This document shows positions 1-35,032 of a stretch of 64,000 nt of DNA, in pieces; positions within the stretch are counted from its first letter, which is position 1; the number at the start of each line of letters is the position of its first letter. The stretch is from an uncultured Gammaproteobacteria bacterium (GTDB lineage Bacteria; Pseudomonadota; Gammaproteobacteria; GCA-002705445; GCA-002716945), in NCBI GenBank assembly GCA_902535975.1, contig CACAVP010000003.1, forward strand, positions 2,533 through 66,532, written 5' to 3'. The notes under the pieces were generated by a model. It was not told where the DNA came from. It saw only the letters and a list, made by a program, of their open reading frames with translations, and did not search any database. Made by a program: the position numbers and the translations under genes.

Positions 1-876
1 AAAACACCAACGATGGGAGGTTTGATTATCATAATATCTATAGTAATTTCTACAGTACTCTGGTCTGACTTAGGCAATCACTACATTCTATTATTATTAT
101 TTGGGATTCTTAGTTTTGGCTTAATTGGTTTTTATGATGACTATAAAAAATTAGTAGAGGGCAAAAGTGATGGAATCAAAGGAAGGTTGAAACTTTTTTT
201 TCAGATTATTTCAGCATCACTGATTACTATTTATTTATATGTCTTTATGGATACAGGAGATACAAGTTCTGTAATGCCATTTTTAAAAGACAACAGCATC
301 TACCTTGGAATTCTCTTTATACCCTGGTCAATTTTTATTCTTGTTGGCTCATCAAACGCAGTGAATTTAACTGACGGTTTAGATGGGTTAGCCATACTAC
401 CATGTATATTAATTGCATCTGCTTTTGTGATATTTGCTTATGTTCATGGGAATATAAATATATCAGAGTATTTACTGATACCCTATTTGGAAGGATCAGG
501 AGAGGTCGCTGTATTTGCTGCATCTCTCGTTGGGGCAGGCCTAGGTTTTCTATGGTTTAATTCATATCCAGCAGAAATATTCATGGGTGATTGCGGATCA
601 TTATCTCTAGGAAGTTCACTTGGCTTGCTTGCAATTATTCTTAAGCAGGAGCTTGCCTTTGCCATCATGAGCGGAATATTCATTGCTGAGGTATTGTCTG
701 TAATTATTCAGGTTATGTCATTCAAAATGAGAAAGGGTAAACGAGTTTTTAAGATGGCACCACTTCATCATCATTATGAGCTTTCAGGATTGTCAGAACC
801 CAAGATTATTATGAGATTTTGGATAGTCACATTCATTCTAGTCCTAATAGCTCTATCGACACTTAAAATACGATGA
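1..876 (+). CDS. mraY: Phospho-N-acetylmuramoyl-pentapeptide transferase MraY (5' end truncated by window edge)
   Basis: The reading frame is open to the window edge, and the ATG at 13 is internal because full MraY is about 360 aa. It is a polytopic membrane protein with NAVNLTDGLDGLA and APLHHHYE motifs. It is the first member of the mraY-murD-ftsW-murG chain. Confidence 0.93.
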   Translation, partial: KTPTMGGLIIIISIVISTVLWSDLGNHYILLLLFGILSFGLIGFYDDYKKLVEGKSDGIKGRLKLFFQIISASLITIYLYVFMDTGDTSSVMPFLKDNSIYLGILFIPWSIFILVGSSNAVNLTDGLDGLAILPCILIASAFVIFAYVHGNINISEYLLIPYLEGSGEVAVFAASLVGAGLGFLWFNSYPAEIFMGDCGSLSLGSSLGLLAIILKQELAFAIMSGIFIAEVLSVIIQVMSFKMRKGKRVFKMAPLHHHYELSGLSEPKIIMRFWIVTFILVLIALSTLKIR

Positions 877-2159
877 ATGTTTTTAAATCTTCATTTCTCA
901 TCATAGGCGAAGGGTTAACATTTGAGCATTGTAGTAACTTTTTTAAAAAAAATGACATAATGTATTACTCCACTTCTACAAATGATATTGTTGATATAGA
1001 TAATCGTAGGATTATATGTAAAAAGAAAAAGATTGATCTAGATAAAATTGATTATGCTGTTATAAGTCCAGGAATTCCTCCAACAAATCATGCATTACAA
1101 AAGCTAGCTTCTCTAGGATGTAAATTCACTACTGATATAGAAATCATTCAAAATCTATCTCAATCAAAGTTTATCTGTATAACAGGAACGAATGGTAAAA
1201 CATCAACAGTCAATCTTATAGCTGATATATTAAATGACAACGATATTAGTGCGATTGCGTGTGGGAATAATGGCATATCTGTTTTTGCGTCTCTTGAGAA
1301 TTCATATGATTACATTTTATTAGAACTTTCAAGTTATCAGTTAGAATACATAAATAAACTCAACTCTTTTATTTCAATTGTATTAAATTTATCTGAGGAT
1401 CATCTTGAAAGACATGCATCATTAGAAAATTACTTGGAGATCAAGGAAAAAATATTCAATCGTGCAAAACATAAATTAATACATAAAAATTTAGATTATC
1501 TTGATAAGTATTCAACATTCGAAGTAAGAGATGAAATGTTTTTAATTAATGATAATATTATCGATGGCTTGACTATAACAGACGATAATCATATTTCATA
1601 TTCTTTAAAATCTTATCTTATTGATGGTAGGCATGATTTACATAATTTATGTGCATCTATCTCAGCGCTTAACATCATTGGCCTGTCTTTAGAGAACATT
1701 CTTAGTTCTTTTGATAAGCGTCAGAGGCTTGGTCATAGAGTTGAAAAATTTCTCACTTTCAATGATATAAAATTTATAAATGACTCTAAATCAACTAATG
1801 CAGACTCAACAAGAAATGCATTAATGTCACTGGGAAATAATATAATTCTTATTATGGGAGGTGACACTAAAAAAATGTCTTACAAGATTCTTACTAAGCT
1901 GATAAATGATAAAGTAAAAATATTAATCATGATCGGAGATAACAAAGATGAACTTAACAAACTATTATCTGTTGATACAATTAAAATTTGTCATGAGGAG
2001 CTTGAAGATGCAATTTCATATATCTTTTCTGTGATGTCGCCAGGTGATACTGTTCTTATGTCACCAGGAACATCAAGTTATTGCATGTATGATAATTATC
2101 AGCATCGCGGTAATCACTTTAAAGAACTTATTAAAAAGTATGTTAGCCAACAGAATTAG
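873..2159 (+). CDS. murD: UDP-N-acetylmuramoylalanine--D-glutamate ligase
   Basis: 428-aa ORF with the Mur-ligase P-loop GTNGKTST. It has an ATGA overlap with mraY and sits in the canonical dcw position. Confidence 0.92.
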   Translation: MNVFKSSFLIIGEGLTFEHCSNFFKKNDIMYYSTSTNDIVDIDNRRIICKKKKIDLDKIDYAVISPGIPPTNHALQKLASLGCKFTTDIEIIQNLSQSKFICITGTNGKTSTVNLIADILNDNDISAIACGNNGISVFASLENSYDYILLELSSYQLEYINKLNSFISIVLNLSEDHLERHASLENYLEIKEKIFNRAKHKLIHKNLDYLDKYSTFEVRDEMFLINDNIIDGLTITDDNHISYSLKSYLIDGRHDLHNLCASISALNIIGLSLENILSSFDKRQRLGHRVEKFLTFNDIKFINDSKSTNADSTRNALMSLGNNIILIMGGDTKKMSYKILTKLINDKVKILIMIGDNKDELNKLLSVDTIKICHEELEDAISYIFSVMSPGDTVLMSPGTSSYCMYDNYQHRGNHFKELIKKYVSQQN

Positions 2160-3294
2160 AAATATTGTAGAGTTTTTCGATAGTAGAGGCCTTGATTCAC
2201 TTTTTTTAGCATGTGTAACGAGTCTAATTTTAATTGGTTTAATAATGGTTGCATCATCAACTGTCGATTTTGCTGCGGCTAAATTTTCCAATCCCCTTTT
2301 CTTCTTAAAAAAACATTTTATTTTTATAATACTGGGATTACTTGTCCTTAGTATTGTCGTACGCATTAAAGTTAAATTTTATTATGATTATGGACAGTAT
2401 TTTTTAATTCTCGCGATCATATTGTCTCTTTTAGTTCATGTACCAGGGCTAGGTAAAACTGTCAACGGCGCAACAAGGTGGATAGATCTAGGATTTTTTA
2501 CTCTACAAATATCTGAGATATCACGCCTCTTCTTCTTCTTGTGGTTGTCCGGCTATATTACAAGAAATGACTTCGATAAAAACTATCTTAAAGTATTTAT
2601 TTTTTTATCAATTTTGATGTTAGTGATAGTATCTCAAAGAGATTTCGGAAGTATGATTTTACTTTTTCTAGTATTTATTTCATTTTCTTTTTTATCAAAT
2701 CTCAGGATCATGAATCTTATAAAAATATTATCAATTTCAGTTCTACCAATATTCTTATTAGTATTCCTTTATCCTTACAGAGTGCAACGTGTGTTGGCAT
2801 TTATTGATCCATGGAGCGATCCTCAGGGTAGCGGATATCAAATCATTGCTTCCCAAATAGCCTTGTCCTCAGGAGGTCTTCTTGGACAGGGGCTTGGCTC
2901 CAGTACCCAAAAGTTGTTTTATTTACCAGAGCAATACAATGATTTCATTCTAGCTATCATTGGTGAGGAATTAGGTTTTATTTTCTTAGCAATACTTTTA
3001 ATACTTTATTTTTTGTTGTTTTCGAGAATTTTTATTTTTTACAAAAAGACATCTAAGATATCAGAATTCTCATCAAATATTATTTTATCAATTGTACTTC
3101 TAATGTTTGTTCAGACAATGATTCATATTTTAGTCAACATTGGCTTATTCCCAACAAAAGGAATGGGGCTACCTTTCATCAGTTATGGAGGAACAAATCT
3201 GTTGCTTATGTTTACTTACATAGGCATCCTTATCAGGATACAAATTGAGAATAAACAGACATTTAGTCAAGCTGTGTCAAATAATCAAAAATGA
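2140..3294 (+). CDS. ftsW: Cell division / peptidoglycan polymerase FtsW (SEDS family)
   Basis: Multi-TM SEDS-like protein with GLPFISYGGT near the C-terminus. I prefer ATG 2140 (MLANRIRN...) over the track start at 2044, which lies deep inside murD. Confidence 0.88.
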   Translation: MLANRIRNIVEFFDSRGLDSLFLACVTSLILIGLIMVASSTVDFAAAKFSNPLFFLKKHFIFIILGLLVLSIVVRIKVKFYYDYGQYFLILAIILSLLVHVPGLGKTVNGATRWIDLGFFTLQISEISRLFFFLWLSGYITRNDFDKNYLKVFIFLSILMLVIVSQRDFGSMILLFLVFISFSFLSNLRIMNLIKILSISVLPIFLLVFLYPYRVQRVLAFIDPWSDPQGSGYQIIASQIALSSGGLLGQGLGSSTQKLFYLPEQYNDFILAIIGEELGFIFLAILLILYFLLFSRIFIFYKKTSKISEFSSNIILSIVLLMFVQTMIHILVNIGLFPTKGMGLPFISYGGTNLLLMFTYIGILIRIQIENKQTFSQAVSNNQK

Positions 3295-4388
3295 AGCAAG
3301 ATATATTTATAGTTGCAAGCGGAACCGGCGGTCATGTAATTCCAGCTAAAAATATAGCGAGTCTACTGATTGATTCAGATTATACAATTACATGGATCGG
3401 GACGAAACGTGGAATAGAAAATAAAATTGTAAATGATAAGAGAATTAGTTTTAAATATTTAAATTCATCTGGGATCAGAGGCAAAAGTATTTTTCATAAG
3501 ATAAAAGGATCTATTAATCTTTTTAGATCTATAATTCAGAGTCTAATTCATATAAAGAAGGAAAAACCAATTTTTATGATAGGTTTTGGAGGATATATAA
3601 CTGTTCCAGTATCTATTGCTGCTTTTATTATGAGAGTACCAGTCTATGCTCACGAGTCTAACTCTATACCGGGAACAGCTAATAAGATTAATAATTTGAT
3701 ATCAAAAAGAACATTTCAAACATTTCCGGAGACGTTTTCAAAGAACAAGAAAATTATACATTCTGGTAATCCAATCCAAGAAAGTTTTTCCAACATAACT
3801 CGACCAGAGACAAAATATAGGAATAGAAAAGAAATATTAAACATACTTATATTTGGTGGAAGTCAAGGAGCAAGATTTTTTAATCAGATGATTCCAAAAT
3901 GTCTTTTAGAATATAGTAATAAATTTAGAATCAAGCATATTTCAGGTAACAAAGATTATGATTTAGTCGAAAAAATATACGATGATCTGCATATCTCATG
4001 TGATGTTTTGGAATTCTCCAATGAGATGGATTTGTTGTATGACTGGTCAGATATAATTATCTCCAGAGCAGGCTCAATGACATTAAGTGAAATCTGTAAA
4101 GCAGGAAGAGCAGCTATACTTGTACCATACCGGTTTGCAACGGATAGACACCAATATTTCAACGCTAAATTCTTAGAATCAAGCTCAGCTGCTATTATTA
4201 TTGAGGAAAATAATAGTTTTTCTTCGGAGCTAGGTAATTCTCTAGGCAAGTTATACAGTGATCAGGGACTTTTATTGAAATTGTCTAAAAATAGTAAAAA
4301 TCTTTTTCCGGAGGATTCCAGTGCTATAATTCTAAAGAATATCCCTGAACTTAATGAAAAACTCAATAACACAACATCTCAAAAATAA
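3291..4388 (+). CDS. murG: UDP-N-acetylglucosamine--N-acetylmuramyl-(pentapeptide) pyrophosphoryl-undecaprenol GlcNAc transferase
   Basis: 365 aa with the N-terminal GTGGHV motif. It overlaps ftsW by 4 nt and is in the dcw position. Confidence 0.92.
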   Translation: MKQDIFIVASGTGGHVIPAKNIASLLIDSDYTITWIGTKRGIENKIVNDKRISFKYLNSSGIRGKSIFHKIKGSINLFRSIIQSLIHIKKEKPIFMIGFGGYITVPVSIAAFIMRVPVYAHESNSIPGTANKINNLISKRTFQTFPETFSKNKKIIHSGNPIQESFSNITRPETKYRNRKEILNILIFGGSQGARFFNQMIPKCLLEYSNKFRIKHISGNKDYDLVEKIYDDLHISCDVLEFSNEMDLLYDWSDIIISRAGSMTLSEICKAGRAAILVPYRFATDRHQYFNAKFLESSSAAIIIEENNSFSSELGNSLGKLYSDQGLLLKLSKNSKNLFPEDSSAIILKNIPELNEKLNNTTSQK

Positions 4389-5748
4389 ATCCTTCTTTTT
4401 AATAGGCATCGGTGGTTCAGGAATGATGGGTATTGCCGAACTACTTCATAACCTTGGATTCACAGTCAGAGGTTCCGATGTACAAGAGAATAATGCAATT
4501 AAGAGATTGCGGAAAATGAAAATAAAAATATTCATTGGTCACGACTCCAAGAATATAAATCTAAAGGATATAGTGGTATTTTCGAATGCTATCCAAAAAA
4601 GCAATATTGAGCTTAAGTTTTCTCGTAAAAATAACTTAACTGTTCTGAGCCGTATGCAGATTCTAGCGGAACTTATGAGACTAAAATATGGAATATCCAT
4701 TACGGGATCGCATGGCAAAACAACAACTACCAGTTTACTTAGTCACATTATGTATAAAAATAAATTAGATCCTACATATTTGATCGGGGGTAAATTAAAA
4801 ACCGATGATCCACATGTGAAACTAGGTAATAGTCACTATCTTGTCACCGAAACAGACGAGAGTGACCCAAGCTTTTCTAAATTGTCACCACACTTAGTTG
4901 TTCTGACAAACTTAGATAGGGAACACTTAGATAATTATAACAATAGCTATAGCAAACTCGAGTCTTCGATCTTAGAACTGATGAATTCTATTCCTTTCTA
5001 CGGAAAAGTGTTTATTAATGGTGATGACAAGAATTCGGTAAAGCTATTGAAAAAGATTAATCGAGGTGTTTGCACTTATGGACTTAAGAAAAAAAATAAT
5101 ATAGTAGCAGAATCTATAAAATATGTAGATGGAAAAAAAATGCAGTTTAATGTAATTTTTTCTAAAAGCACTTATAGAGTGTCTACTAATTTACTAGGTA
5201 AACATAATGTATATAACATTCTCTCTGCTATATCTGTTTGTCTACACCTTGGTATACCTATAGCTAAAACCATCAAATCATTAAACAGTTTTTTTGGTGC
5301 AAGTCGAAGATTTGATGTCTATGAGGATATTTCCATTAACAAATATAAGCCAACCATTGTTGATGATTACGGTCACCATCCAACAGAAATAAATTCTACT
5401 TTAGATACTATTAATAAATTATACCCAAATAAAAAAATAGTAATGATTTTCCAACCACACCGATTTTCAAGGACAAAAGCATATTGGCGATTATTTCTAG
5501 ATGTATTTAAATCACTGGATCGCATTATTTTACTCCCAACTTACGCAGCTGGTGAGAAAAATAATTCATATGATTCATCTTTTATTTTTCAGAAAATTAC
5601 AAATAAAAATAAAACTTTGCTTGAATCAATTGATCAAGTTAAAAATGTTTTAAAAAATATTAATTTTAATAATTCCGTATTAGTTCTTCAGGGAGCTGGT
5701 GATATAAAAGATATAATAAACATTCTCAAAAGAAAAGATGATTGTTAA
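4354..5748 (+). CDS. murC: UDP-N-acetylmuramate--L-alanine ligase
   Basis: 464 aa with GIGGSGMMGIAE and GSHGKTTTT motifs, in the dcw position. Confidence 0.93.
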   Translation: MKNSITQHLKNKSFFLIGIGGSGMMGIAELLHNLGFTVRGSDVQENNAIKRLRKMKIKIFIGHDSKNINLKDIVVFSNAIQKSNIELKFSRKNNLTVLSRMQILAELMRLKYGISITGSHGKTTTTSLLSHIMYKNKLDPTYLIGGKLKTDDPHVKLGNSHYLVTETDESDPSFSKLSPHLVVLTNLDREHLDNYNNSYSKLESSILELMNSIPFYGKVFINGDDKNSVKLLKKINRGVCTYGLKKKNNIVAESIKYVDGKKMQFNVIFSKSTYRVSTNLLGKHNVYNILSAISVCLHLGIPIAKTIKSLNSFFGASRRFDVYEDISINKYKPTIVDDYGHHPTEINSTLDTINKLYPNKKIVMIFQPHRFSRTKAYWRLFLDVFKSLDRIILLPTYAAGEKNNSYDSSFIFQKITNKNKTLLESIDQVKNVLKNINFNNSVLVLQGAGDIKDIINILKRKDDC

Positions 5749-6571
5749 AAAAATATACCCTTTAAAAAAAATTACTACTATCGGCCTTGGCGGTCATTGC
5801 AAAGAATTTATATGTCCAGAGGATGAGGCAGAGCTGATGCGGATTATCAGTAAAGATCCACTATTAATAGGCAATGGGTCTAATATATGTTTCATAACAG
5901 AATTCTATGATCGATCTATTGTAAGTCTAAAAAGAATGAAAAAATATATCCATCTTGATAATAAGTATATCTCTTGCTCTAGTAATGTTTCGTGTACAGG
6001 ATTAGCAAGATATCTCCATAATAACAGACAACCAGGCTATGAATTTTTATATGGTATCCCAGGTACAATTGCCGGAGCCGTATCAATGAATGCTGGTGCA
6101 TTTGAGAGAGAGATAATGCCTTATGTGTACAGTTTAGATTTATTAAATGAGAATGGAGAGATTTATACATTGAAGAACAACGATATGTCCTACTCATATA
6201 GGACATCAAACATTAACAAAAAGTCTATTATAATATCGGTTAAACTGCACAAACAAACAACAGATTTTGATATAAACCTTCTTAATTTGCTCAATCAAAA
6301 AAGAAAAATCAGTCAGCCAGTAAATCAGCTGTCGTGTGGCTGTATATTTAAAAATCCACCGGGAGATTATGCTGCTCGACTAATTGATAGCGCACAATTA
6401 AAGGGTTCTCGCGCTGGAGGAATATATATTTCTCACAAACATTCAAATTATTTTATTAACGATGGTGCAGGCACTTATGAGGATTTTCTAGTTTTATTAA
6501 GACGAGTCAAAGAGGTAATAGCATCTGAGTTTAGTATAAAACTTGATGAGGAAGTAATTCTTTTAAAATGA
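5738..6571 (+). CDS. murB: UDP-N-acetylenolpyruvoylglucosamine reductase
   Basis: 277 aa with the overall MurB pattern (N-terminal FAD-binding region, C-terminal GCIFKNP). It lies between murC and ddl. Confidence 0.88.
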   Translation: MIVKKIYPLKKITTIGLGGHCKEFICPEDEAELMRIISKDPLLIGNGSNICFITEFYDRSIVSLKRMKKYIHLDNKYISCSSNVSCTGLARYLHNNRQPGYEFLYGIPGTIAGAVSMNAGAFEREIMPYVYSLDLLNENGEIYTLKNNDMSYSYRTSNINKKSIIISVKLHKQTTDFDINLLNLLNQKRKISQPVNQLSCGCIFKNPPGDYAARLIDSAQLKGSRAGGIYISHKHSNYFINDGAGTYEDFLVLLRRVKEVIASEFSIKLDEEVILLK

Positions 6572-7470
6572 ATAAAGATTCTAATATTTGTGTTTTGGGA
6601 GGCGGCTGGTCTAATGAAAGAGAAATTTCTCTGAAAAGTTCTAAAGATGTATATAAAACTCTTTTGGAAAATAAACATAATGTTGTCTTATTTGATATAA
6701 AAAGAGATTCATATGATGATCTGAAATCCTTTTTACGAAATAACTCTATAGATCTAGTGTTTAACCTTGTTCATGGTGAGGGTGGTGAAGATGGAAAAAT
6801 ACAAAGTTATTTAGATGATATTGATATAAAGTACTGTGGCTCTAACTCTCACTCTTCATCCCTATCATTTAATAAGTACAAGACGAAGAAGATATGGAGA
6901 GAACATAATCTAATAACCCCAGATTTTGAGATTTACTCAGATCAGACTTATGAAGAGTTGACTAAATCTTATGGAAATACATTTTTCATAAAAGACACAT
7001 GTTCGGGCTCAAGTAATAACATTTTTCAAATTAAGAATAATGATGATTTCGATATTTTTATTAAAAACAAAAGTAATAGAGAGTTTATGATAGAGAAAAA
7101 AATATCATCTGATGAGTATACAGCTGCTATCCTAAATAATAAGGTTCTCCCAATTATAAAGATCGTTCCCTCTAATGAATTCTATGATTTTGATGCCAAA
7201 TATAAATCAGATGAAACAAAATTCTTATTTCCAGAACTAAATCAAGAGATACTTAGCCTAATTAGTGATCAAGTCATAAAGTCATTTAATGCTCTTGGAT
7301 GTGAGACATGGGCAAGAGTTGATTTTTTTATCAATAACAATTCCATAATTTTACTCGAGATTAACACAATACCGGGTATGACAGATCATAGCCTAGTACC
7401 TAAAGCAGCAAGCAAATATGGTCTGAGCTATTATCAACTAGTTCTGGAAATAATGGGTATCGATGCCTAA
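6568..7470 (+). CDS. ddl: D-alanine--D-alanine ligase
   Basis: 300-aa ATP-grasp protein (VLGGGWSNEREISL, EINTIPGMT) in the dcw position. Confidence 0.92.
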   Translation: MNKDSNICVLGGGWSNEREISLKSSKDVYKTLLENKHNVVLFDIKRDSYDDLKSFLRNNSIDLVFNLVHGEGGEDGKIQSYLDDIDIKYCGSNSHSSSLSFNKYKTKKIWREHNLITPDFEIYSDQTYEELTKSYGNTFFIKDTCSGSSNNIFQIKNNDDFDIFIKNKSNREFMIEKKISSDEYTAAILNNKVLPIIKIVPSNEFYDFDAKYKSDETKFLFPELNQEILSLISDQVIKSFNALGCETWARVDFFINNNSIILLEINTIPGMTDHSLVPKAASKYGLSYYQLVLEIMGIDA

Positions 7471-8107
7471 AATTATACTCATAACAATTTTTTTTCTTAT
7501 AAGTCTTATCTTGTATATATCAGACTACTTTGTTTTTCCCATTGAAAAAATTGAAATAACATCGACTAGCTCTAGTTACGACAATGAGAAAATTAACGAT
7601 ATAGTTCTCTCAATTCAAGGCCAAGATCTACTGTCACTTGACTTAAGTGATATAAAAAGAAAAATAAGGTCAGATGGCTGGATAAAAGATGTTGAAGTAA
7701 AAAAATCTTTTCCAGATAGACTAGAAATAATTATCATACCTCAAAAACCATATGCTATTTATAATGCAAAAATTTTGATGACAGATGGTGATCTTATAGA
7801 AGCCTCAACACTACCTCAAGACTTACCAATTATAATCGATCACACACATAATAGCTTAACCTCAATGAATATCATGGTCCTTACTAGTAAACTTTTACAA
7901 AAAATCGATCTAGATGTTAAAAAAATTGAAATTCATAATTCTCTAATTGAAGTTTTTACATCGACAAATATCTTAATATCTGACAGAGATAATTATGAGG
8001 AAAATCTTAATAGACTAGTAGTTTCATTTTCGGACCTTCAGAGGGTGTTTAAAAGAGATATTAAATCGATTGATATGAGATATTCCAATGGTTTTGCTAT
8101 CAAATAA
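7463..8107 (+). CDS. ftsQ: Cell division protein FtsQ
   Basis: 214 aa with a single N-terminal TM helix followed by a POTRA-like region. It lies between ddl and ftsA. Confidence 0.8.
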   Translation: MPKIILITIFFLISLILYISDYFVFPIEKIEITSTSSSYDNEKINDIVLSIQGQDLLSLDLSDIKRKIRSDGWIKDVEVKKSFPDRLEIIIIPQKPYAIYNAKILMTDGDLIEASTLPQDLPIIIDHTHNSLTSMNIMVLTSKLLQKIDLDVKKIEIHNSLIEVFTSTNILISDRDNYEENLNRLVVSFSDLQRVFKRDIKSIDMRYSNGFAIK

Positions 8108-8134
8108 GAGCTTAAATGAGATATAATATTTCTA

Positions 8135-9379
8135 ATGAGTAATGTTAAAAGCACGGACACTCTTGTTGCATTAGACATAGGTACATCTAAAGTATTATGT
8201 CTCGTGGCCGACATTGATGATAAGGGAGAATTAAGGATCATAGGTATCGGCAATGAGCCATGTAGCGGCCTGAATAAGGGTGTTATTTCTGAGATAGATG
8301 CAACTGTATCAAGTATTCGACGAGCAAAAGAGAAAGCTAGCTCAATGTCTACCTGTAATATTCAGTCTGTAACTACAGGAATTGCTGGTAATCATATACA
8401 AAGTTACAACGGAAACGGCGCAGTGAATATTCTTAACGATGAAGTCACCTCTGAAGATAAAGAAAAAGTTCTAAATAACGCACAAAATATTCAGATTCCT
8501 AAAGATCAAGAGATACTTCATTCCATAGAACAACACTATACTATTGATGGGCAGTCAGGCATAAGGGAGCCCCTAGGCATGGCAGGAGCAAGATTAGAGG
8601 CAAATGTTCATATTATTACTACATCATCTACTGCTAAAAGAAATTTAACTAAGTGTATAAATAACAGTTTATTAGAGATCGATGACTATGTTCTTCAACC
8701 GGTGGCCTCTAGTGAGGCTGTTCTGTCTAATGAAGAACGTGATTTAGGTGTTTGTCTCATTGATATCGGCTGCGGGACAACTGACATAGCCATTTTCACA
8801 GAAGGTACTATTAAACATACTGCAGTTATTCCAATTGGTAGTCAGATGATTACGAATGATATAAGAATAATATTATGTACATCATTAGATGCAGCTGAAG
8901 AGATCAAAATACAATACGGTTGTGTTTCATCAGATATTGATACGGATTTGAAAATTCCTGTCCCTTCAGTATCTGATAAGCCAGATACTGAAACAACAAG
9001 AACCATTCTGTCACAAATTATTTCAGCGAGAGTCAATGAAATATTTGATTCGATACAGAAAGAAATCACCAACAGTGGTTATTCAAGCAAGATAAGAGCC
9101 GGAATAGTCTTTACAGGGGGAGGAGCAAAACTCGAGGGATTAGACAGTTTTGCGGAATCCTATTTTCAAAAACCATCAAGAATAGGATCTCCAAAATCAA
9201 TAAAGGGTCTTGAGGATCTTCGTGGAAAAACTAGATATTCTACAGCTGTTGGACTACTTTTATACAGGCATAAGGAGCTTAGCTTAATGTCTGCAAAAAA
9301 TAAATATACTTCCAGGATTGGCTCTATGCTTGACAGATATGCTAAGAAGCTTTCTGATTACTTTCAAAAAGAACTTTAA
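8135..9379 (+). CDS. ftsA: Cell division protein FtsA
   Basis: 414-aa actin-fold protein with ALDIGTSK, DIGCGTTDIA and FTGGGAKLEG motifs. Confidence 0.93.
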   Translation: MSNVKSTDTLVALDIGTSKVLCLVADIDDKGELRIIGIGNEPCSGLNKGVISEIDATVSSIRRAKEKASSMSTCNIQSVTTGIAGNHIQSYNGNGAVNILNDEVTSEDKEKVLNNAQNIQIPKDQEILHSIEQHYTIDGQSGIREPLGMAGARLEANVHIITTSSTAKRNLTKCINNSLLEIDDYVLQPVASSEAVLSNEERDLGVCLIDIGCGTTDIAIFTEGTIKHTAVIPIGSQMITNDIRIILCTSLDAAEEIKIQYGCVSSDIDTDLKIPVPSVSDKPDTETTRTILSQIISARVNEIFDSIQKEITNSGYSSKIRAGIVFTGGGAKLEGLDSFAESYFQKPSRIGSPKSIKGLEDLRGKTRYSTAVGLLLYRHKELSLMSAKNKYTSRIGSMLDRYAKKLSDYFQKEL

Positions 9380-9408
9380 TCATTGTATTATTGTCTAATT
9401 ATTATGAT

Positions 9409-9437
9409 TTGTAAGATTTATGACATTTTGATAGAAT
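9409..9437 (+). promoter_or_regulatory. Candidate sigma70 promoter for lpxC: -35 TTGTAA (9409-9414), 17-nt spacer, -10 TAGAAT (9432-9437)
   Basis: The hexamers were read directly from the sequence. The -10 ends 6 nt before the lpxC ATG and no Shine-Dalgarno is visible. The AT-rich background makes chance matches possible. Confidence 0.35.
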
Positions 9438-9443
9438 TTCGGT

Positions 9444-10352
9444 ATGTTAAAGCAGAGAACATTATCTAGCAGCATAACCGCTACGGGCGTAGGTCTACAT
9501 ACCGGCAAAAAAATTAATTTGAGAATTAATCCTGGGCAACCAGATAGAGGGATAGTGTTTATCCGCACTGATGTGACAAGTGAGCCTATCACGGCATCTT
9601 TAAAAAATGTTCATGACACAAGACTTTCTACTACAATTTCAAATGGCAGTGCTTCTGTATCAACAGTAGAGCATTTATTATCTGCATTAGCTGGTTTAGG
9701 TATTGATAATGCTACTATTGAATTGGATGGACCAGAAGTTCCTATAATGGACGGTAGCTCGCGTCCATTTGTTTTTCTTATACAGTCAGCAGGTATTAGC
9801 GAACAAAATCACCCTAAGAAATTTATAAAAATTACAAAAGATATTCAAGTTAAGCAAAATGATAAATGGGCTAAAATTGAGCCGTTTGATGGATTCAAGG
9901 TTGCTTTTACTATCGACTTTGACCATCCTTCTTTTCCTAAAGAAACCCAAACTTCAACCATAGACTTTTCAACAATTTCCTATTTAAGCCAAGTAAGTCG
10001 AGCAAGAACTTTTGGCTTTGCAAAGGATATAGAGAATTTGAGAAAAAATAACTTAGCACTGGGTGGGAGTGTTAATAATGCAATCGTAATAGACGATTAT
10101 AAAATCGTTAATGAAGATGGACTGAGATACAAGGATGAGTTTGTAAAACATAAAATACTTGATGCAATTGGAGACTTATACCTTCTTGGACATAGCTTAA
10201 TCGGATCTTTCTCTGCATTTAAGTCAGGTCATCATCTGAATAACCTCTTGCTTCGTGAACTTGTCAATAATGAAAATGCATGGGAACAAGTAATCATTGA
10301 GGACGAAGATAAGACACCGATATTATTTACTCATGTTACTGAGTCTATTTGA
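9444..10352 (+). CDS. lpxC: UDP-3-O-acyl-N-acetylglucosamine deacetylase
   Basis: 302 aa, with the N-terminal MLKQRTL...GVGLHTG and [13 protein letters not shown] motifs typical of LpxC. Confidence 0.93.
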
Positions 10353-10611
10353 TCTTAATCTTTAAATCCTGAATATTATATAAACCATGATTTTTGAATA
10401 TTTCTAAATATTTCTCTCTCTCGAATTTAAGTATTGAACCAACAGAACTACTCTCACACTCAATAGTTATATAAGTCTCAGAATAGTTAATCACATGAAT
10501 TTTATGTTTCATATGATCATCAGATACATTGACAAGGATCTCATCTAACTCATCAATAATCTCTTTCTTCTTGAGTATTTTATTAGGTATATAATCGGAT
10601 ATCTTTTTCAT
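10345..10611 (-). CDS. Small DUF721/DciA-like protein (tentative)
   Basis: ORF of 88-98 aa, divergent from secA. Its overall pattern and its lpxC/secA neighbourhood recall DUF721 (DciA helicase-operator) proteins of DnaC-less gammaproteobacteria. I prefer the start at 10611 (MKKISDY) to 10641. Confidence 0.45.
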
Positions 10612-10660
10612 ATAGCATCCATTTATTGTATGATAAACCATATTTCATAATGTATAAAAT

Positions 10661-15299: not shown

Positions 15300-16061
15300 T
15301 TATATATAACAGAGGTCAATGACGAATGTAATATCATCTTTGATTTGAATAAATTTATTTTCATCATTTAGAGTCATAAATGAAACTGTTGCTCTTTGTG
15401 GACCAACACTTATGCGAGGAAAAAAATAGTTATCAGAATGCATTGTAATTCTGAGCATCCTCACTTTTTTTTCTGTTTCTAGTTTAAATATGTACATTCC
15501 ATTTTTTGCACACTCTTCTCTAGTCTCTGAACTCTTTCTCAATATATCAAGGCAAAAATGAACAGAATTCTCTATCGGTTTGATTAATTCTAGCCACAAA
15601 TTTATCTGATTTTGCCGGTAGGCATGGTCTCTAGTTAACCAATAATCTAGTTCAGAACTTATAGTGTCACAATGCTTTACACAATGTTGGAATAGTTCAT
15701 CTACGTGAAGATCATTTAAGTAATTTGCTTTAAGATTATGTAATGTATTTAATATAACGGACTGTTTCTCCATGATCGAGTTTAATTTTATTTTATCTGA
15801 GCCCTCGATCTTTACGTACTCTGAGTATCTAGACTTATGAAAATCTATTTCTCTTATCAATTCTCTTTTAACTTCAGCTCTGGACATTGTTTGATATAAA
15901 GCTACGAGACTATTCAGAGCAGCAAATGAATCATAAATAGTATCAATCTCTTTATGCTTATTTATCTTTAAAAAATAATTTTCAAGTTTTAGAAACTTTC
16001 TTATACGCTCATCTACAGGCTCTTCATATATTGCTGCATGATTGTCTGAAAATGTATTCAT
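15300..16061 (-). CDS. zapD: Cell division protein ZapD (FtsZ-binding)
   Basis: 253 aa. The N-terminal IYEEPVDERIRKFLKLE and the C-terminal YFFPRISVG...FVIDLCYI follow the ZapD/YacF pattern. The coaE-zapD operon order matches E. coli. Confidence 0.8.
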   Translation of the reverse strand: MNTFSDNHAAIYEEPVDERIRKFLKLENYFLKINKHKEIDTIYDSFAALNSLVALYQTMSRAEVKRELIREIDFHKSRYSEYVKIEGSDKIKLNSIMEKQSVILNTLHNLKANYLNDLHVDELFQHCVKHCDTISSELDYWLTRDHAYRQNQINLWLELIKPIENSVHFCLDILRKSSETREECAKNGMYIFKLETEKKVRMLRITMHSDNYFFPRISVGPQRATVSFMTLNDENKFIQIKDDITFVIDLCYI

Positions 16062-24100: not shown

Positions 24101-24139
24101 ATTCCAGCGTTGTATCTGTTAATTGAAAAGGACGATTAA
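21107..24139 (+). CDS. RND family efflux transporter permease (AcrB/HAE1-like)
   Basis: 1010 aa with 12-TM architecture and two large periplasmic loops. The N-terminus (RPVLAAVLSL) and the VVENI motif are typical of the family. Confidence 0.92.
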   Translation: MHISETTVKRPVLAAVLSLFVILIGLASYDKLTIREYPDIDRPVVTVTTVYLGASSKILERDVTEIIEDSLSGISGIREITSESRDELSKIRIEFTLETDLDTAANDVRDKVSRVAALLPADAESPRIAKSDSDARAIMWIGFSSDILTSIQLNDYLDRNVVDRLSIQPGVASITIGGERKYSVRVWMNPEQISSRGLTIIDVIQAIKNENIERGAGRFESTDREIGLKLDSKLKTLNEYNKIVIKHYGDSKVYLSDVAKIEIGPESDRGFLRANNKSAIGLGIVRQTKSNVLDVANNIKAELDLIRPSLPESINMTIGYDQSKFVNESISEIRFALTVSMILVILIIYYFLSSKTATIIPAVTIPISIIGTFFIIYIFGYSLNVLTFLALVLAIGLIVDDSIVVVENIKRRIENGEDNYTASINGAKQITFVVIATTLVLVSVFLPLSFMGGKTGRLFIEFGVVLSFAVIISSFVALTLTPMMCSKILEKNQKHEQRELFFKFKQFYESSLLASQNNTKIVYSVTIIFIIISFLLFKFIPKELAPSEDRGIFIVSVNGPEGSSLDYTNGMVKKVEDILSDYVDKGEIKTVFAIVAPGFSGEPGNVNSAFIFASLVPWEDRSRHQKDIVREIFPKLISMPGAMIFTINPPSLGQSPFKSPVRLVISGTDYDQVGEWGETIKNISQDVGLRNARIDYKVDKPRLNLKVDRDAASNLGVSADDIATSLDALYGSRKVTNYSLDGITYNVILKADEDYLVDESNLDNIFIKSSATQKLIPLSNLVNNNLEATSKSLKRVNRLPSVTLSSSISPGSSLGDTLNNLINESSKVLPSNAKISFAGASKEYFETGYKLELTILMAILVVYLVLSAQFESFRNPLIIILTVPITMTAGIYSLFVTGTSLNVYSQIGFLMLIGLIAKNGILVVEFANQLIEDGMKKSQAIIESSLIRFRPVIMTTLSTLLGAIPLILSTGAGAESRFAMSVVVFGGIALASFITLYLIPALYLLIEKDD

Positions 24140-24462
24140 TTTTTAGGGATTATCTTTAAACCTTTCTGTTTAGAGTAATATGTTGATAAATCAATTATAT
24201 CTTGTTCTGATAGACCAGCTGCAAAACCACTCATTATTGCATTTTGTCTCTCACCACTTTTATATGCATTCAATGAATGAATAAGGTAATTTTTATATTG
24301 ACCAGCTAACCTTGGGTACAATTTATTTTCACTATTTCCATCACCACCATGACATGCGGAGCATGTAACAGATTTTTCTTTACCACGGTCATAGCTAGAA
24401 TCAGCAATGACTTGATTACTAAAGATAAAAGTTAAACATATGATAAAAAAGTATTTACTCAT
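24136..24462 (-). CDS. Monoheme class I c-type cytochrome (c4-half / c553-like)
   Basis: 108 aa with a signal peptide, a single CSACH haem site and a distal Met (AIMSG). Confidence 0.8.
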   Translation of the reverse strand: MSKYFFIICLTFIFSNQVIADSSYDRGKEKSVTCSACHGGDGNSENKLYPRLAGQYKNYLIHSLNAYKSGERQNAIMSGFAAGLSEQDIIDLSTYYSKQKGLKIIPKN

Positions 24463-24764
24463 TTCACTGATTCAAAATAGTTTGCTATATCAATGATATC
24501 CTGGTCAGATAATCCTGATGCATTTGCATGCATGGTGCCATGTTTTCTTTCTCCCTTTTGGTATGCTTTGAGCGCTGAGATTATATAGTCAGCATGTTGG
24601 CCCCCTAATTTTGGTACCTTGTAGGTAGGATATGTGTTGTTGTAACCCTCAATAGCATGACAACCAAGACATGTCTCTGATTTTTCTCTTCCTGTATATT
24701 CATCAGCGTGTGAAATCGAAACGGATATGGCTAATATAGCAATGCTTTTGAGTATAGCTTTCAT
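24459..24764 (-). CDS. Monoheme class I c-type cytochrome (c4-half / c553-like)
   Basis: 101 aa with a signal peptide, a single CLGCH haem site and a distal Met (GTMHA). It is a paralogue of the downstream gene and overlaps it by 4 nt. Confidence 0.8.
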   Translation of the reverse strand: MKAILKSIAILAISVSISHADEYTGREKSETCLGCHAIEGYNNTYPTYKVPKLGGQHADYIISALKAYQKGERKHGTMHANASGLSDQDIIDIANYFESVK

Positions 24765-30360: not shown

Positions 30361-30396
30361 AAATTTATTAAAAATATATAAACTGTGATTTTGTAT

Positions 30397-31596
30397 ATGG
30401 AAATAGCTACAACAATATTAATTTACACTTCTGTACTAGGGTTTATTCTCGGTTATGTTGTCAATAAAACAAATTTCTGCACAATGGGTGCTGTATCGGA
30501 TTTAGTTAACATAGGCGACTCTTCACGATTAAAAGCCTGGTTTCTTGCAATTACAGTTGCAATACTAGGCGTCACTTTTCTAGAATATACTGGAACACTC
30601 AATGCAAATGATTCAAGAATACCCTATCGTAACTCAGTCTTTTTCTGGCCTAGATATATTATTGGTGGAGTAATGTTTGGCATAGGGATGACTCTAGCAA
30701 GCGGCTGTGGAAATAAAATTCTTATCAGAATAGGTGGTGGAAACATAAAATCTGTTTTTGTTTTACTAATAGCAGGGTTGATGGCACTTCTTATGACTAG
30801 AACTGATTTCTATGGGTTACTATTTCATAGTTGGATGAGTCCCATTAGTCCAGATCTAGCTAAAATCGGTATAAGTGATCAATCAATACAGACAATTATA
30901 GCTTCATTAATTGGTTTAGATAACAGTAGCATATTCATCTCATTGATAGTGCCATTATTGATCTGTGGAATCCTTCTTAAATATATTTTCTCATCTAATA
31001 AAAAACTTAGTAATGATAATCTCCTTTCTGGCATTGTCGTAGGATTAGTTGTGACGTTTGCCTGGTTGCTCACAGGAGGTGATCTTGGTCAATCATGGAT
31101 AGAAAATAATGACTTTTTAGATACTCCATATCCTGCTGTTGGTGTGCAATCATTTACTTTCATAAACCCCATGGGAGAGACACTTTTATTTACCAGTAAT
31201 ATATTCGACAATTTTTTCTTTACGTTTGGTGTAGCAGCATTATTATCAACAATCGCTGGTTCATTTGTGTACTCAATATTAAGTAATAATTTGAGAATAG
31301 AATGGTTCGCAAATAAACATGACTTTTTCAGACACATGATTGGTGGAATTTTGATTGGAATTGGCGGAGTACTCTCTTTGGGTTGCACTATTGGGCAAGG
31401 TGTTTCAGGTGTGTCTACGTTAGCAATTGGTTCTGTTATCACCTTAATTTCAATCATATTTGGTGCTTCACTAATGATGAAAATCGAGTATTATAAAGCA
31501 GTGTATGATGATAGTAGTTTCATTGAGCTTCTTAAAAATTCACTTATAGATTTAAGGGTTCTTCCAGAAACACTTAGAACTCTTGAAAAGATTTAA
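30397..31596 (+). CDS. yeeE: YeeE/YedE family sulfur-compound (thiosulfate) transporter
   Basis: Polytopic membrane protein with the three conserved Cys motifs (NFCTMG, SGCGNK, LGCTIGQG). The ATG at 30397 is preferred over the GTG at 30385. Confidence 0.85.
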   Translation: MEIATTILIYTSVLGFILGYVVNKTNFCTMGAVSDLVNIGDSSRLKAWFLAITVAILGVTFLEYTGTLNANDSRIPYRNSVFFWPRYIIGGVMFGIGMTLASGCGNKILIRIGGGNIKSVFVLLIAGLMALLMTRTDFYGLLFHSWMSPISPDLAKIGISDQSIQTIIASLIGLDNSSIFISLIVPLLICGILLKYIFSSNKKLSNDNLLSGIVVGLVVTFAWLLTGGDLGQSWIENNDFLDTPYPAVGVQSFTFINPMGETLLFTSNIFDNFFFTFGVAALLSTIAGSFVYSILSNNLRIEWFANKHDFFRHMIGGILIGIGGVLSLGCTIGQGVSGVSTLAIGSVITLISIIFGASLMMKIEYYKAVYDDSSFIELLKNSLIDLRVLPETLRTLEKI

Positions 31597-33087: not shown

Positions 33088-33915
33088 TTATTTTCTAGAG
33101 CCAGGACCATTGACTTCAAGGCCATTACTCATAAATGTAGTAAAAAATTCAAGATTGTTAAGCTCATCACTACCACCCTTGAAACTTTTTGCTCTTATAC
33201 GATTGAGGCATCCAGCAAATCTCTCATGGAGTGTTACTAACCTACCCATCCCAGAGCGATATACTGGAAAATGTGTTGGGTGACCAATAGCTGGACTGGG
33301 GATATCAGCTCTGAGTTTTGTTCCTGTTTGATAGACATGACAGTCTGCACAAGAAAAATTCAACTGTCCTTTCTTCGTAAAATATAATCTCCTACCATCT
33401 TCGTAGGCATCTAAGGCTTCTTTTGTATTGGGGATCTGAATGTTAAATTTATTGCCCCTTGATGTATATGCCATGTAGGCAGAAACATGCGCTAATTCCT
33501 TACCTTTGAAATAACTAAGCGGCTTCTCCCCGTTTTTAACTCTGCAGTCATTGAGGGCTCCCTCTAATGTAACTACTTTATTTTTTTCATTATCGAAATA
33601 AGGATAGTTTTGTCTGATACCAATGCCATCATTTTCAAAACAAGATCCGTAAGTGTTACCGTTTTTAAATGGTCTGTTAAACAACTCTTCTCCTCTGTCG
33701 ACATTAAGTTCATACGGGGGGAATTCTTCCATAGCTTCCCATTGCTCCCTTGCAGACTTATCAATAGAATAAACGCCATTTTTATAATCCTCAAATGGTG
33801 TATCAGGGAATCTATTTTCAAAATAACTTACAAACTCATCGTAATCTCTTTCGGGGCTAGCAATTGCCGAAATTGAAGGAATTAAAAAAGCTAGTAGAAG
33901 TAGTTGTTTAAACAT
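33088..33915 (-). CDS. soxA: Sulfur-oxidation c-type cytochrome SoxA (monoheme type)
   Basis: 275 aa with a signal peptide, a single CADCH site and a conserved distal Cys (FAGCLNRIR). It follows soxXYZ. Confidence 0.88.
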   Translation of the reverse strand: MFKQLLLLAFLIPSISAIASPERDYDEFVSYFENRFPDTPFEDYKNGVYSIDKSAREQWEAMEEFPPYELNVDRGEELFNRPFKNGNTYGSCFENDGIGIRQNYPYFDNEKNKVVTLEGALNDCRVKNGEKPLSYFKGKELAHVSAYMAYTSRGNKFNIQIPNTKEALDAYEDGRRLYFTKKGQLNFSCADCHVYQTGTKLRADIPSPAIGHPTHFPVYRSGMGRLVTLHERFAGCLNRIRAKSFKGGSDELNNLEFFTTFMSNGLEVNGPGSRK

Positions 33916-34224
33916 TTATTTAACAGTGCCAGTTTTAGAGTCTCTATTACCTTGATTATCTACCCAAGATATCTCCAGATTATCTCCCTTATTGCCTTTG
34001 TATTTAAAGGTTAAGTAAGGATTCTTTGATACAGCAGGGCCCCAATAAATGGTTATAACATCTTTTCCGTTAGCTTTACTGTGTACTTCTTGAATGTAGT
34101 GAGCTGGTATAAGGTCACCTGTTTTTTTATCTTTTCTTTGCCCAGTCTCCATTGGATGTTTGATTAGTGCTTTGACTGTTACAACGCCATTGGATTCTTT
34201 TGATCTCATTTTTATAGTACTCAT
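33916..34224 (-). CDS. soxZ: Thiosulfate oxidation carrier complex protein SoxZ
   Basis: 102 aa, immediately after soxY, with the typical SoxZ beta-sandwich pattern (VKALIKHPMETG). Confidence 0.88.
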   Translation of the reverse strand: MSTIKMRSKESNGVVTVKALIKHPMETGQRKDKKTGDLIPAHYIQEVHSKANGKDVITIYWGPAVSKNPYLTFKYKGNKGDNLEISWVDNQGNRDSKTGTVK

Positions 34225-34226
34225 GA

Positions 34227-34688
34227 TTAACCTCCACAGCCTCCTATAGTTACTTTAACCTCTTGCGTTGAGGTATAAACTTTGTCGCCACTCTTAACAG
34301 CTGCCATCACATTTGATGTTTTACCCATTTTCAACCTTGTGCCTATAGAAGGCTCTGAGAGTGATGTTAATTTATATCCACTTGATAATGGTTGAGGATT
34401 ATTTTCTACGAATATCATAATTGACTCTACATTATCCAATGTTGTTGATACATTGATTGGAACGATAGCCCCGTTCTCTGCGATCTCTGGAGCTTTAAGT
34501 TTTACCTTTGATGACTCCTCTAAGTTACTGTGACCATAGACACTACTTACAGATTCAGTTAAATCTTTAATATCAAAAGATTTTTTAGGCCATGCTGCAT
34601 ACGCTTTCTTACTAACAATTAGTGAAGGTATAGCGACTAATGAACCTGCGAATAACATACTATTTTTTATAAAGTTTCTTCTGTTCAT
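34227..34688 (-). CDS. soxY: Thiosulfate oxidation carrier protein SoxY
   Basis: 153 aa with a Tat-like signal (MNRRNFIK) and the diagnostic C-terminal swinging-arm motif GGCGG. Confidence 0.93.
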   Translation of the reverse strand: MNRRNFIKNSMLFAGSLVAIPSLIVSKKAYAAWPKKSFDIKDLTESVSSVYGHSNLEESSKVKLKAPEIAENGAIVPINVSTTLDNVESIMIFVENNPQPLSSGYKLTSLSEPSIGTRLKMGKTSNVMAAVKSGDKVYTSTQEVKVTIGGCGG

Positions 34689-34696
34689 ATTTCTCC

Positions 34697-35032
34697 TTAA
34701 AGTGTGTATAAATAATCAATTATTTTGTTAATCTCATTTCTAGTTAGAGCACCATGTTTTCCAAATGGCGGCATAAATGAATATGGATCTTTTTCAGTTG
34801 GATCCCAGATTTGTTGAAAAAGTATTTCTCTGTCAGGAAACCTTGCTTTCATAGCAAGCAAAGGCGGACCATTATTTCCTGCTAATTCCCCATCTTCAAT
34901 CATGTGACATGCAAGGCAATTACCTTTTTTTCTGTCAAATGTAAGTTTTTTTCCTTCAGCAATAGTGTCAGGAAATGATGCAATTGGCATCAATATTATT
35001 ACAAAAAGTAATGATTTTATAAGGCTTTTCAT
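34697..35032 (-). CDS. soxX: Sulfur-oxidation c-type cytochrome SoxX (monoheme)
   Basis: 111 aa with a signal peptide and a CLACH haem site. It is the first gene of soxXYZA. Confidence 0.85.
   Translation of the reverse strand: MKSLIKSLLFVIILMPIASFPDTIAEGKKLTFDRKKGNCLACHMIEDGELAGNNGPPLLAMKARFPDREILFQQIWDPTEKDPYSFMPPFGKHGALTRNEINKIIDYLYTL

Follow-up and report, generated by a model that had tools for sequence, protein, structure and literature searches.

In Escherichia coli, the dcw cluster has the order mraZ-rsmH-ftsL-ftsI-murE-murF-mraY-murD-ftsW-murG-murC-ddlB-ftsQ-ftsA-ftsZ-lpxC, and in this species as in most gammaproteobacteria ftsZ is located between ftsA and lpxC. The proximal ftsZ promoters of E. 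coli sit inside ddlB-ftsA, and the FtsZ:FtsA ratio is critical for its division. Tamames and colleagues are said to have linked, in 2001, a disrupted dcw order to cell shape. Chlamydiae and Planctomycetes are counted among the FtsZ-less bacteria. Closer to the present case, SUP05, 'Ca. Ruthia magnifica' and 'Ca. Vesicomyosocius okutanii' were reported to be FtsZ-less (PMC6509183, PMC4164004, PMC1974822), and V. okutanii is devoid of ftsZ, ftsA, ftsL, ftsN and ftsX (PMC1974822). 'Ca. Thioglobus autotrophicus' EF1 was also reported to lack ftsZ (PMC6509183) and expresses FtsA (PMC6509183, Dataset S1).

The window, namely the whole stretch of 64,000 nucleotides (64 kb) that was analysed, has a GC content of 33.3%. 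Its dcw chain was verified by an ORF map and Pfam scans (Table 1), which bear out the near-unbroken succession mraY-murD-ftsW-murG-murC-murB-ddl-ftsQ-ftsA given in a preliminary description of this DNA, as well as the retention of ftsA, ftsQ, ftsW, ftsK and zapD (Pfam/NCBIfam matches). On the 3' side of lpxC, the window encodes secA, argJ, a nudix gene, zapD and coaE. In the window and in its relatives, the dcw genes are co-oriented in a single cluster, and lpxC shares 85-98% identity among relatives of the same family (hereafter family 1).

The preliminary description had pointed out that ftsZ is missing between ftsA and lpxC, and this is the case. Indeed (i) the ORF map and the Pfam scan place the ftsA stop (9379) and the lpxC start (9444) on either side of a gap of 64 bp, (ii) a six-frame search with the regular expression G[GA]G[TS]G[STAG]G gave zero matches in the 64 kb, in agreement with the reported lack of a tubulin signature, (iii) the best hit of E. 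coli FtsZ in a tblastn search of the 64-kb window has an E value of 1.7, (iv) a Pfam scan of the otherwise unannotated ORFs of the window returned no tubulin or FtsZ match, and (v) a tblastn search of the family-1 loci for FtsZ gave no match even at E <= 10. The spacer contains no ftsZ remnant and does contain the promoter-like TTGTAA-17-TAGAAT that had been described there. Sites of this type number 11 in this AT-rich DNA, versus 9.0 +/- 3.2 expected, and a single promoter-like match is not above chance in such DNA. Across 12 genomes, the -35-like TTGTAA, a -10-like TAGAAT or TAATAT and their spacing are all conserved and the rest of the spacer is variable, and this element is likely the lpxC promoter. 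A GTCTAA hexamer located ~20 nt after the ftsA stop is also invariant in 12 genomes, with variable flanks.

Table 1. Features of the window and of related contigs, and dcw gene orders found in other AT-rich lineages.
Feature	Sequence	Position	Strand	Evidence or remark
mraY (3' part)	window	13-876, from the 5' edge of the window (feature 1..876)	+	Pfam Glycos_transf_4
murD	window	873-2159	+	ORF map, Pfam
ftsW	window	2140-3294	+	Pfam FTSW_RODA_SPOVE, E = 9e-89
murG	window	3291-4388	+	ORF map, Pfam
murC	window	4354-5748	+	ORF map, Pfam
murB	window	5738-6571	+	ORF map, Pfam
ddl	window	6568-7470	+	ORF map, Pfam
ftsQ, 214 aa	window	7463-8107	+	Pfam POTRA_1, E = 1.6e-12
ftsA	window	8135-9379	+	Pfam FtsA and SHS2_FTSA
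ftsA-lpxC spacer, 64 bp	window	9380-9443	.	slot of ftsZ in other Gammaproteobacteria
promoter-like TTGTAA-17-TAGAAT	window	9409-9437	+	consensus scan; TG just upstream of the -10
lpxC	window	9444-10352	+	Pfam LpxC, E = 9e-111
antisense ORF	window	10345-10641	-	between lpxC and secA
zapD	window	15300-16061	-	Pfam ZapD PF07072, 116 bits (cut-off 27)
two small cytochrome c genes	window	24136-24764	-	
TsuA/YeeE-like thiosulfate transporter gene	window	30385-31596	+	
soxX-soxY-soxZ-soxA	window	33088-35032	-	
ftsK	window	54203-56401	+	NCBIfam DNA translocase FtsK, E = 4e-168 over the C-terminal 480 residues
J-domain ORF	L153	6117-6311	-	Pfam DnaJ
J-domain ORF	L181	8592-8789	+	Pfam DnaJ
ftsZ	ena:ERZ27237579:k141_195789 (641,379 bp)	490,444-491,598		sister family
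ftsA	ena:ERZ27237579:k141_195789 (641,379 bp)	503,171-504,421		sister family
mraZ-rsmH-ftsZ-ftsI-murE	L063, L097, L132, L143, L149, L155			
mraZ-rsmH-ftsI-ftsZ-murE	L091, L120, L164, L086			
rsmH-ftsZ	L156			38-nt gap
mraZ-ftsZ-rsmH-ftsI	L061			

Other genes of the window deserve a brief mention. FtsQ is the fastest-evolving protein of the cluster, sharing 44-83% identity among members of the family and 28% across families, with a dN/dS of 0.15-0.33; POTRA_1 is the sole domain detected in the FtsQ of the window, and outgroup FtsQ also has FtsQ_DivIB_C. The antisense ORF between lpxC and secA is conserved (89-101 aa) with a dN/dS of ~0.1, and therefore is a real gene. The copy in the window has no Pfam match at E <= 1e-3 and those of relatives match DciA (PF05258) weakly; its product could possibly be a short DciA-like helicase-loading factor. 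Lastly, the thiosulfate transporter, sox and cytochrome c genes point to a predicted capacity for sulfur oxidation in a genome of ~1.1 Mb.

The lineage of the window is the marine order GCA-002705445, an assignment that rests on the published GTDB classification of one relative. This relative, MAG BS301-5m-G69 (L005), has an FtsA 85% identical to that of the window and the same synteny, and is classified in its authors' table as o__GCA-002705445; f__GCA-002716945, its GC content being 31% and its size estimated at ~1.27 Mb (Black Sea MAG paper supplement). The order is described as a basal gammaproteobacterial one, of common origin with SAR86 and PIVX01, with genomes of ~1.1 Mb and ~30% GC, and 34 circular MAGs are available. 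Circular genomes of GCA-002705445 and SAR86 score ~75-85% 'complete' in CheckM1 and CheckM2 (10.1101/2025.05.13.653689), and therefore absence calls based on MAG completeness are unreliable for both groups. In an exhaustive search of FtsA representatives at 50% identity, the whole group falls into one cluster, whose representative is 64% identical to the FtsA of the window, the next match being at 47%. The 64% group is a second clade, probably the family GCA-002705445; its GC content is 29-30%, it keeps zapD intact, and both its ddl-bamD synteny and its ftsA-lpxC adjacency are those of the window. FtsA homologues of the order are found on contigs of 0.9-1.07 Mb. A vesicomyid/SUP05-type lineage had been guessed in the preliminary description because the window carries soxXYZA. 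This guess fails, as L005 belongs to o__GCA-002705445 and Thioglobaceae are listed as a separate clade from this order in the same kind of source; the likeness to vesicomyids fails as well, since V. okutanii has no ftsA (PMC1974822) while the ftsA of the window is highly conserved. Two AT-rich 50%-identity representatives considered as Thioglobaceae FtsA (P0169, P0214) proved to come from unrelated organisms with ftsA-ftsZ. Although dcw genes are routinely annotated in public MAGs of the order, a literature search found no mention of an ftsL-ftsZ-ftsI order or of the status of ftsZ in GCA-002705445.

An exact look-up of the FtsA of the window matched no recorded sequence. Comparison of this FtsA with species-representative genomes yielded 48 loci. 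ftsA is directly followed by lpxC in 9/9 close species-level relatives (FtsA identity 83-99%), which include genomes from single cells, MAGs from TARA and the Black Sea, and one 937-kb long-read contig, and in 4 further contigs. Among the more distant FtsA loci (<=47% identity) with sufficient flank, ftsZ comes right after ftsA in 35/35. The three nearest outgroup loci (47%, 45% and 43% FtsA identity) have the canonical ftsA-ftsZ, and therefore the move of ftsZ is derived and common to the order.

The gene itself was found upstream in the same cluster. A metagenome collection was scanned with a DNA pattern obtained by back-translating the FtsZ tail DIPAFLR into AT-rich codons, which gave at least 120 loci. 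Contig MDTE01037735.1 (75 kb; L129), whose MraY and FtsA are 86% and 94% identical to those of the window, encodes on one strand the 3' part of ftsZ, ftsI, murE, murF and mraY, followed by murD, ftsW, murG, murC, murB, ddl, ftsQ and ftsA, with ftsZ ~12.7 kb upstream of ftsA. In 12 further contigs, with 78-85% identity to L129 over the C-terminal part of FtsZ, ftsZ is followed by ftsI and, where the contig is long enough, by murE, murF and mraY; 5/12 also show mraZ-DnaJ-rsmH-ftsL upstream of ftsZ. Overall, ftsZ is directly upstream of ftsI in all contigs of the order that cover the region (13 of family 1, and L181 and L182 of family 2), and ftsL precedes it wherever the upstream flank is covered. 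In the sister family, a single contig (ena:ERZ27237579:k141_195789) carries ftsZ 11.6 kb upstream of ftsA (Table 1), and therefore this family has the same order. The Pfam neighbours of ftsZ on L153 are FtsL, MraW, MraZ and a PBP transpeptidase. Likewise, several FtsZ homologues have a longest contig of exactly the same length as that of FtsA homologues of the order (946100, 65758, 641379, 177146 and 36954). The ftsL-ftsZ gap is 10-14 bp long and contains GGAGG, the ftsZ-ftsI gap is 43-97 bp long, and the synteny from mraY to bamD is identical in the window and its relatives. The cluster thus reads mraZ-(J-domain ORF)-rsmH-ftsL-ftsZ-ftsI-murE-murF-mraY-murD-ftsW-murG-murC-murB-ddl-ftsQ-ftsA-lpxC.

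Two peculiarities of the cluster were observed in addition. A J-domain-only ORF of 64-65 aa (Pfam DnaJ, E = 1.6e-16) lies between mraZ and rsmH in both families and is an unusual dcw insert. One sublineage of the sister family has murB directly after murG, with no murC between them (L051-L053, ~6444-8390; L181 and L182, 19171-21117); murC is present between these genes in the window, L055, L056, L129 and another contig of the sister family.

The FtsZ of the order is full length and canonical, as shown by the following features. The protein of L153 (381 aa) matches Pfam Tubulin (PF00091, 1e-47) and FtsZ_C (PF12327, 3e-29) and is 57% identical to E. coli FtsZ. A protein search with the FtsZ of the order returned at least 120 homologues, and both GGGTGTG and the T7 loop NxDFADV (NVDFADV in the order) are present in 120/120 of the homologues listed. 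The conserved C-terminal peptide of FtsZ (DIPAFLR) is the binding site of FtsA, ZipA and ZapD. The C-terminal tail DIPAFL(R/K)Q(Q/N)AD is likewise present in 120/120 of those listed, nearly all of them having DIPAFLRQQAD preceded by I/V/L; the contigs found with the DNA pattern were preselected for the DIPAFLR motif, whereas these homologues were not.

Taken together, these comparisons show that the shift of ftsZ, by ~12 kb and inside the dcw cluster, dates back at least to the ancestor of the order GCA-002705445. For the window we consider with high confidence that ftsZ moved within the cluster from the ftsA-lpxC slot to the position between ftsL and ftsI, in a member of this order that divides with an ordinary Z ring. 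The preliminary description had left the choice between a moved and a lost ftsZ. The first alternative stands, ftsZ being located between ftsL and ftsI on the same contigs as the ftsA of the lineage, and the second falls for the lineage; an intact ftsZ elsewhere, which was said to reduce the case to a relocation, is precisely what the dcw contigs contain.

As the window starts inside mraY, the position of ftsZ in this very genome is read from relatives, the closest linked one having 94% FtsA identity; the flank used for a 99% identical relative (L009) is too short to reach the ftsZ region. Going by synteny and by the gene lengths of L129, the ftsZ stop should lie ~4.7 kb before base 1 of the window, with ftsI, murE and murF in between. 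It could be argued that this genome has its ftsZ in a slot other than ftsL-ftsI, following a second, strain-specific move, because the ftsL-ftsI region is outside the window and because AT-rich marine lineages with ftsZ at several 5' dcw slots imply that the gene moved more than once. Such a second move is improbable, however, since every contig of the order that spans the region, in both families, has ftsZ directly before ftsI, and since the mraY-bamD synteny is the same in the window and in those relatives.

These other lineages were encountered in a sample of 120 AT-rich contigs matching the FtsZ-tail pattern, a sample that is AT-biased and without phylogenetic control. In 28 contigs of this sample, ftsZ is located among the 5' genes of the dcw cluster; these contigs represent at least 7 FtsZ clusters (mutual identity <70%) and at least 4 slots, including ftsL|ftsZ|ftsI, rsmH|ftsZ, ftsI|ftsZ|murE and mraZ|ftsZ|rsmH. 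All of them (28/28) have a GC content below 0.36, and none of the contigs with GC >= 0.38 in the same sample (18-26) has ftsZ in the 5' dcw. The other AT-rich, mostly marine lineages concerned (Table 1) have an FtsZ ~41-54% identical to that of the order. It is conceivable, but rather doubtful, that ftsZ was shifted to the promoter-proximal part of the cluster repeatedly, and not just once, among AT-rich streamlined marine bacterioplankton. If the moves were independent, they would suggest that minimal genomes are selected for a simpler control of FtsZ dosage by a single promoter (Pmra/MraZ).

FtsA and ZapD, as partners of FtsZ, bear on whether the gene was lost. Relaxed selection on the two genes, a possibility raised in the preliminary description, is contradicted by the dN/dS values of 0.015-0.026 for ftsA, the lowest of the region, and of ~0.05 for zapD, with saturated dS; both are under strong purifying selection, which the retention of a canonical FtsZ would explain. 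Conservation in the region is highest for two genes, of which ftsA is one. FtsA proteins combine an actin-like fold, including the SHS2 1C subdomain, with an amphipathic C-terminal tail and FtsZ-tail contacts in subdomain 2B. The FtsA of the window matches the structures of E. coli, Xenorhabdus and Vibrio FtsA with E values of ~1e-85 (7e-86 for E. coli FtsA, 7q6d), and its C-terminus ...YFQKEL is conserved in both families. All 238 sequences compared from the two clades of the order have R299 and E302; these residues correspond to R300 and E303 of E. coli, which we take to be FtsZ-tail contacts in subdomain 2B, a role reportedly established by Pichoff and Lutkenhaus in 2007 and by Szwedziak in 2012. 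The ZapD of the window is 85%, 71% and 43% identical to its orthologues in L055, L056 and L051, respectively, a conservation that exceeds that of the products of murB, ddl, argJ and coaE. It matches the ZapD structures 5koa, 5dko and 5imj, E. coli among them, with E ~4e-17 over residues 10-245. Among R56, R221 and R225 (E. coli numbering), which are presumably implicated in binding of the FtsZ tail, the first two are kept and R225 is replaced by S. In the putative FtsZ cleft, for which E8, E22, R176 and H140 are candidates for tail binding (PMC5125937), E8, E22 and R176 are kept and H140 is replaced by D. H140 is strictly conserved in enterobacterial and Vibrio ZapD. The constraint on zapD and ftsA and the kept FtsZ-contact residues pointed towards a retained FtsZ; this was not decisive alone, because the reportedly FtsZ-less EF1 keeps FtsA.

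A true loss of ftsZ, with a division without Z ring as in SUP05 and vesicomyids and with FtsA and ZapD repurposed, would fit the 64 kb without FtsZ, the precise excision between ftsA and lpxC, the streamlined genome of ~1.1 Mb and the precedent of EF1, reported as FtsZ-less (PMC6509183) yet expressing FtsA (Dataset S1). A SUP05-like FtsZ-less case was indeed the first likely answer, and was ruled out by the different order and by the finding of ftsZ. Loss is highly improbable, given that an intact canonical ftsZ is found on the same contigs as the ftsA of the lineage in both families, that the GTP-binding, T7-loop and tail motifs are kept in all the FtsZ homologues listed, that zapD is strongly conserved, as are the FtsZ-contact residues in FtsA, and that the lineage lies outside Thioglobaceae.

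That ftsZ was dropped by an error of assembly or binning, for which nothing speaks except the unusual gene order, is hardly credible: the single-cell genomes AG-894-P10 and AG-390-N19, TARA and Black Sea MAGs assembled from short reads, and long-read contigs 0.9-1.07 Mb in length all show the same junction with a spacer of 63-65 bp. The ftsA-lpxC spacer measures 63-65 bp in 12 independently assembled family-1 genomes, and therefore a mis-assembly at 9380-9443, which the preliminary description had named as a way to remove the observation, is excluded; the junction is real and the arrangement is old. In the sister family, the gap is ~100-110 bp long.

With ftsZ relocated within the cluster, division would rely on an ordinary Z ring, in which FtsZ would be anchored to the membrane through its tail by FtsA and cross-linked by ZapD; these roles would account for both genes being intact and constrained. 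Judging from spacing and sequence conservation, ftsZ would be co-transcribed with the promoter-proximal genes mraZ-rsmH-ftsL, its position 10-14 bp after ftsL behind GGAGG suggesting a strong ribosome-binding site, and lpxC would be expressed from the conserved promoter in the short interval that separates it from ftsA. As to the move, the original copy could have been lost after a duplication, or ftsZ could have been transposed precisely; both routes fit. The FtsZ:FtsA ratio must here be set differently, without ftsZ-proximal promoters inside ddlB-ftsA.

This is an order-wide clean break of the ftsA-ftsZ pair, among the most conserved adjacencies in bacteria, in an abundant uncultured marine group, and the ftsL-ftsZ-ftsI arrangement provides a simple synteny marker for the order and possibly for its relatives. 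The analysis also removes the tempting but wrong claim of a second free-living FtsZ-less proteobacterial lineage, and illustrates that the edge of a window can mimic gene loss.

Compared with known systems, the locus resembles the dcw cluster of E. coli in its gene set, its location on one strand, its tight packing and its frequent ORF overlaps, in having lpxC, secA, a mutT-like nudix gene, zapD and coaE downstream, and in the canonical sequences of FtsZ, FtsA and ZapD. Unlike in E. coli, ftsZ separates ftsL from ftsI instead of following ftsA, whose neighbour, 64 bp away, is lpxC; the ftsA-ftsZ pair is split, a J-domain ORF of 64 aa lies between mraZ and rsmH, and promoters inside ddlB-ftsA cannot act on the relocated ftsZ. 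As in the rearranged or split dcw clusters known elsewhere, an otherwise highly conserved order is altered; unlike in those, the cluster is whole and compact, a single gene having moved by ~12 kb, cleanly at both ends. With SUP05, Ruthia and V. okutanii, the lineage shares the features of an AT-rich marine gammaproteobacterium with a small genome, sox genes and no ftsZ after ftsA. It differs from them in belonging to another order and in having an intact ftsZ elsewhere in the cluster, and from V. okutanii, which lacks ftsA, ftsL, ftsN and ftsX, in the presence of ftsA in the window and of ftsL in relatives. The locus is thus a dcw cluster with one gene displaced, and not a member of the FtsZ-less group.
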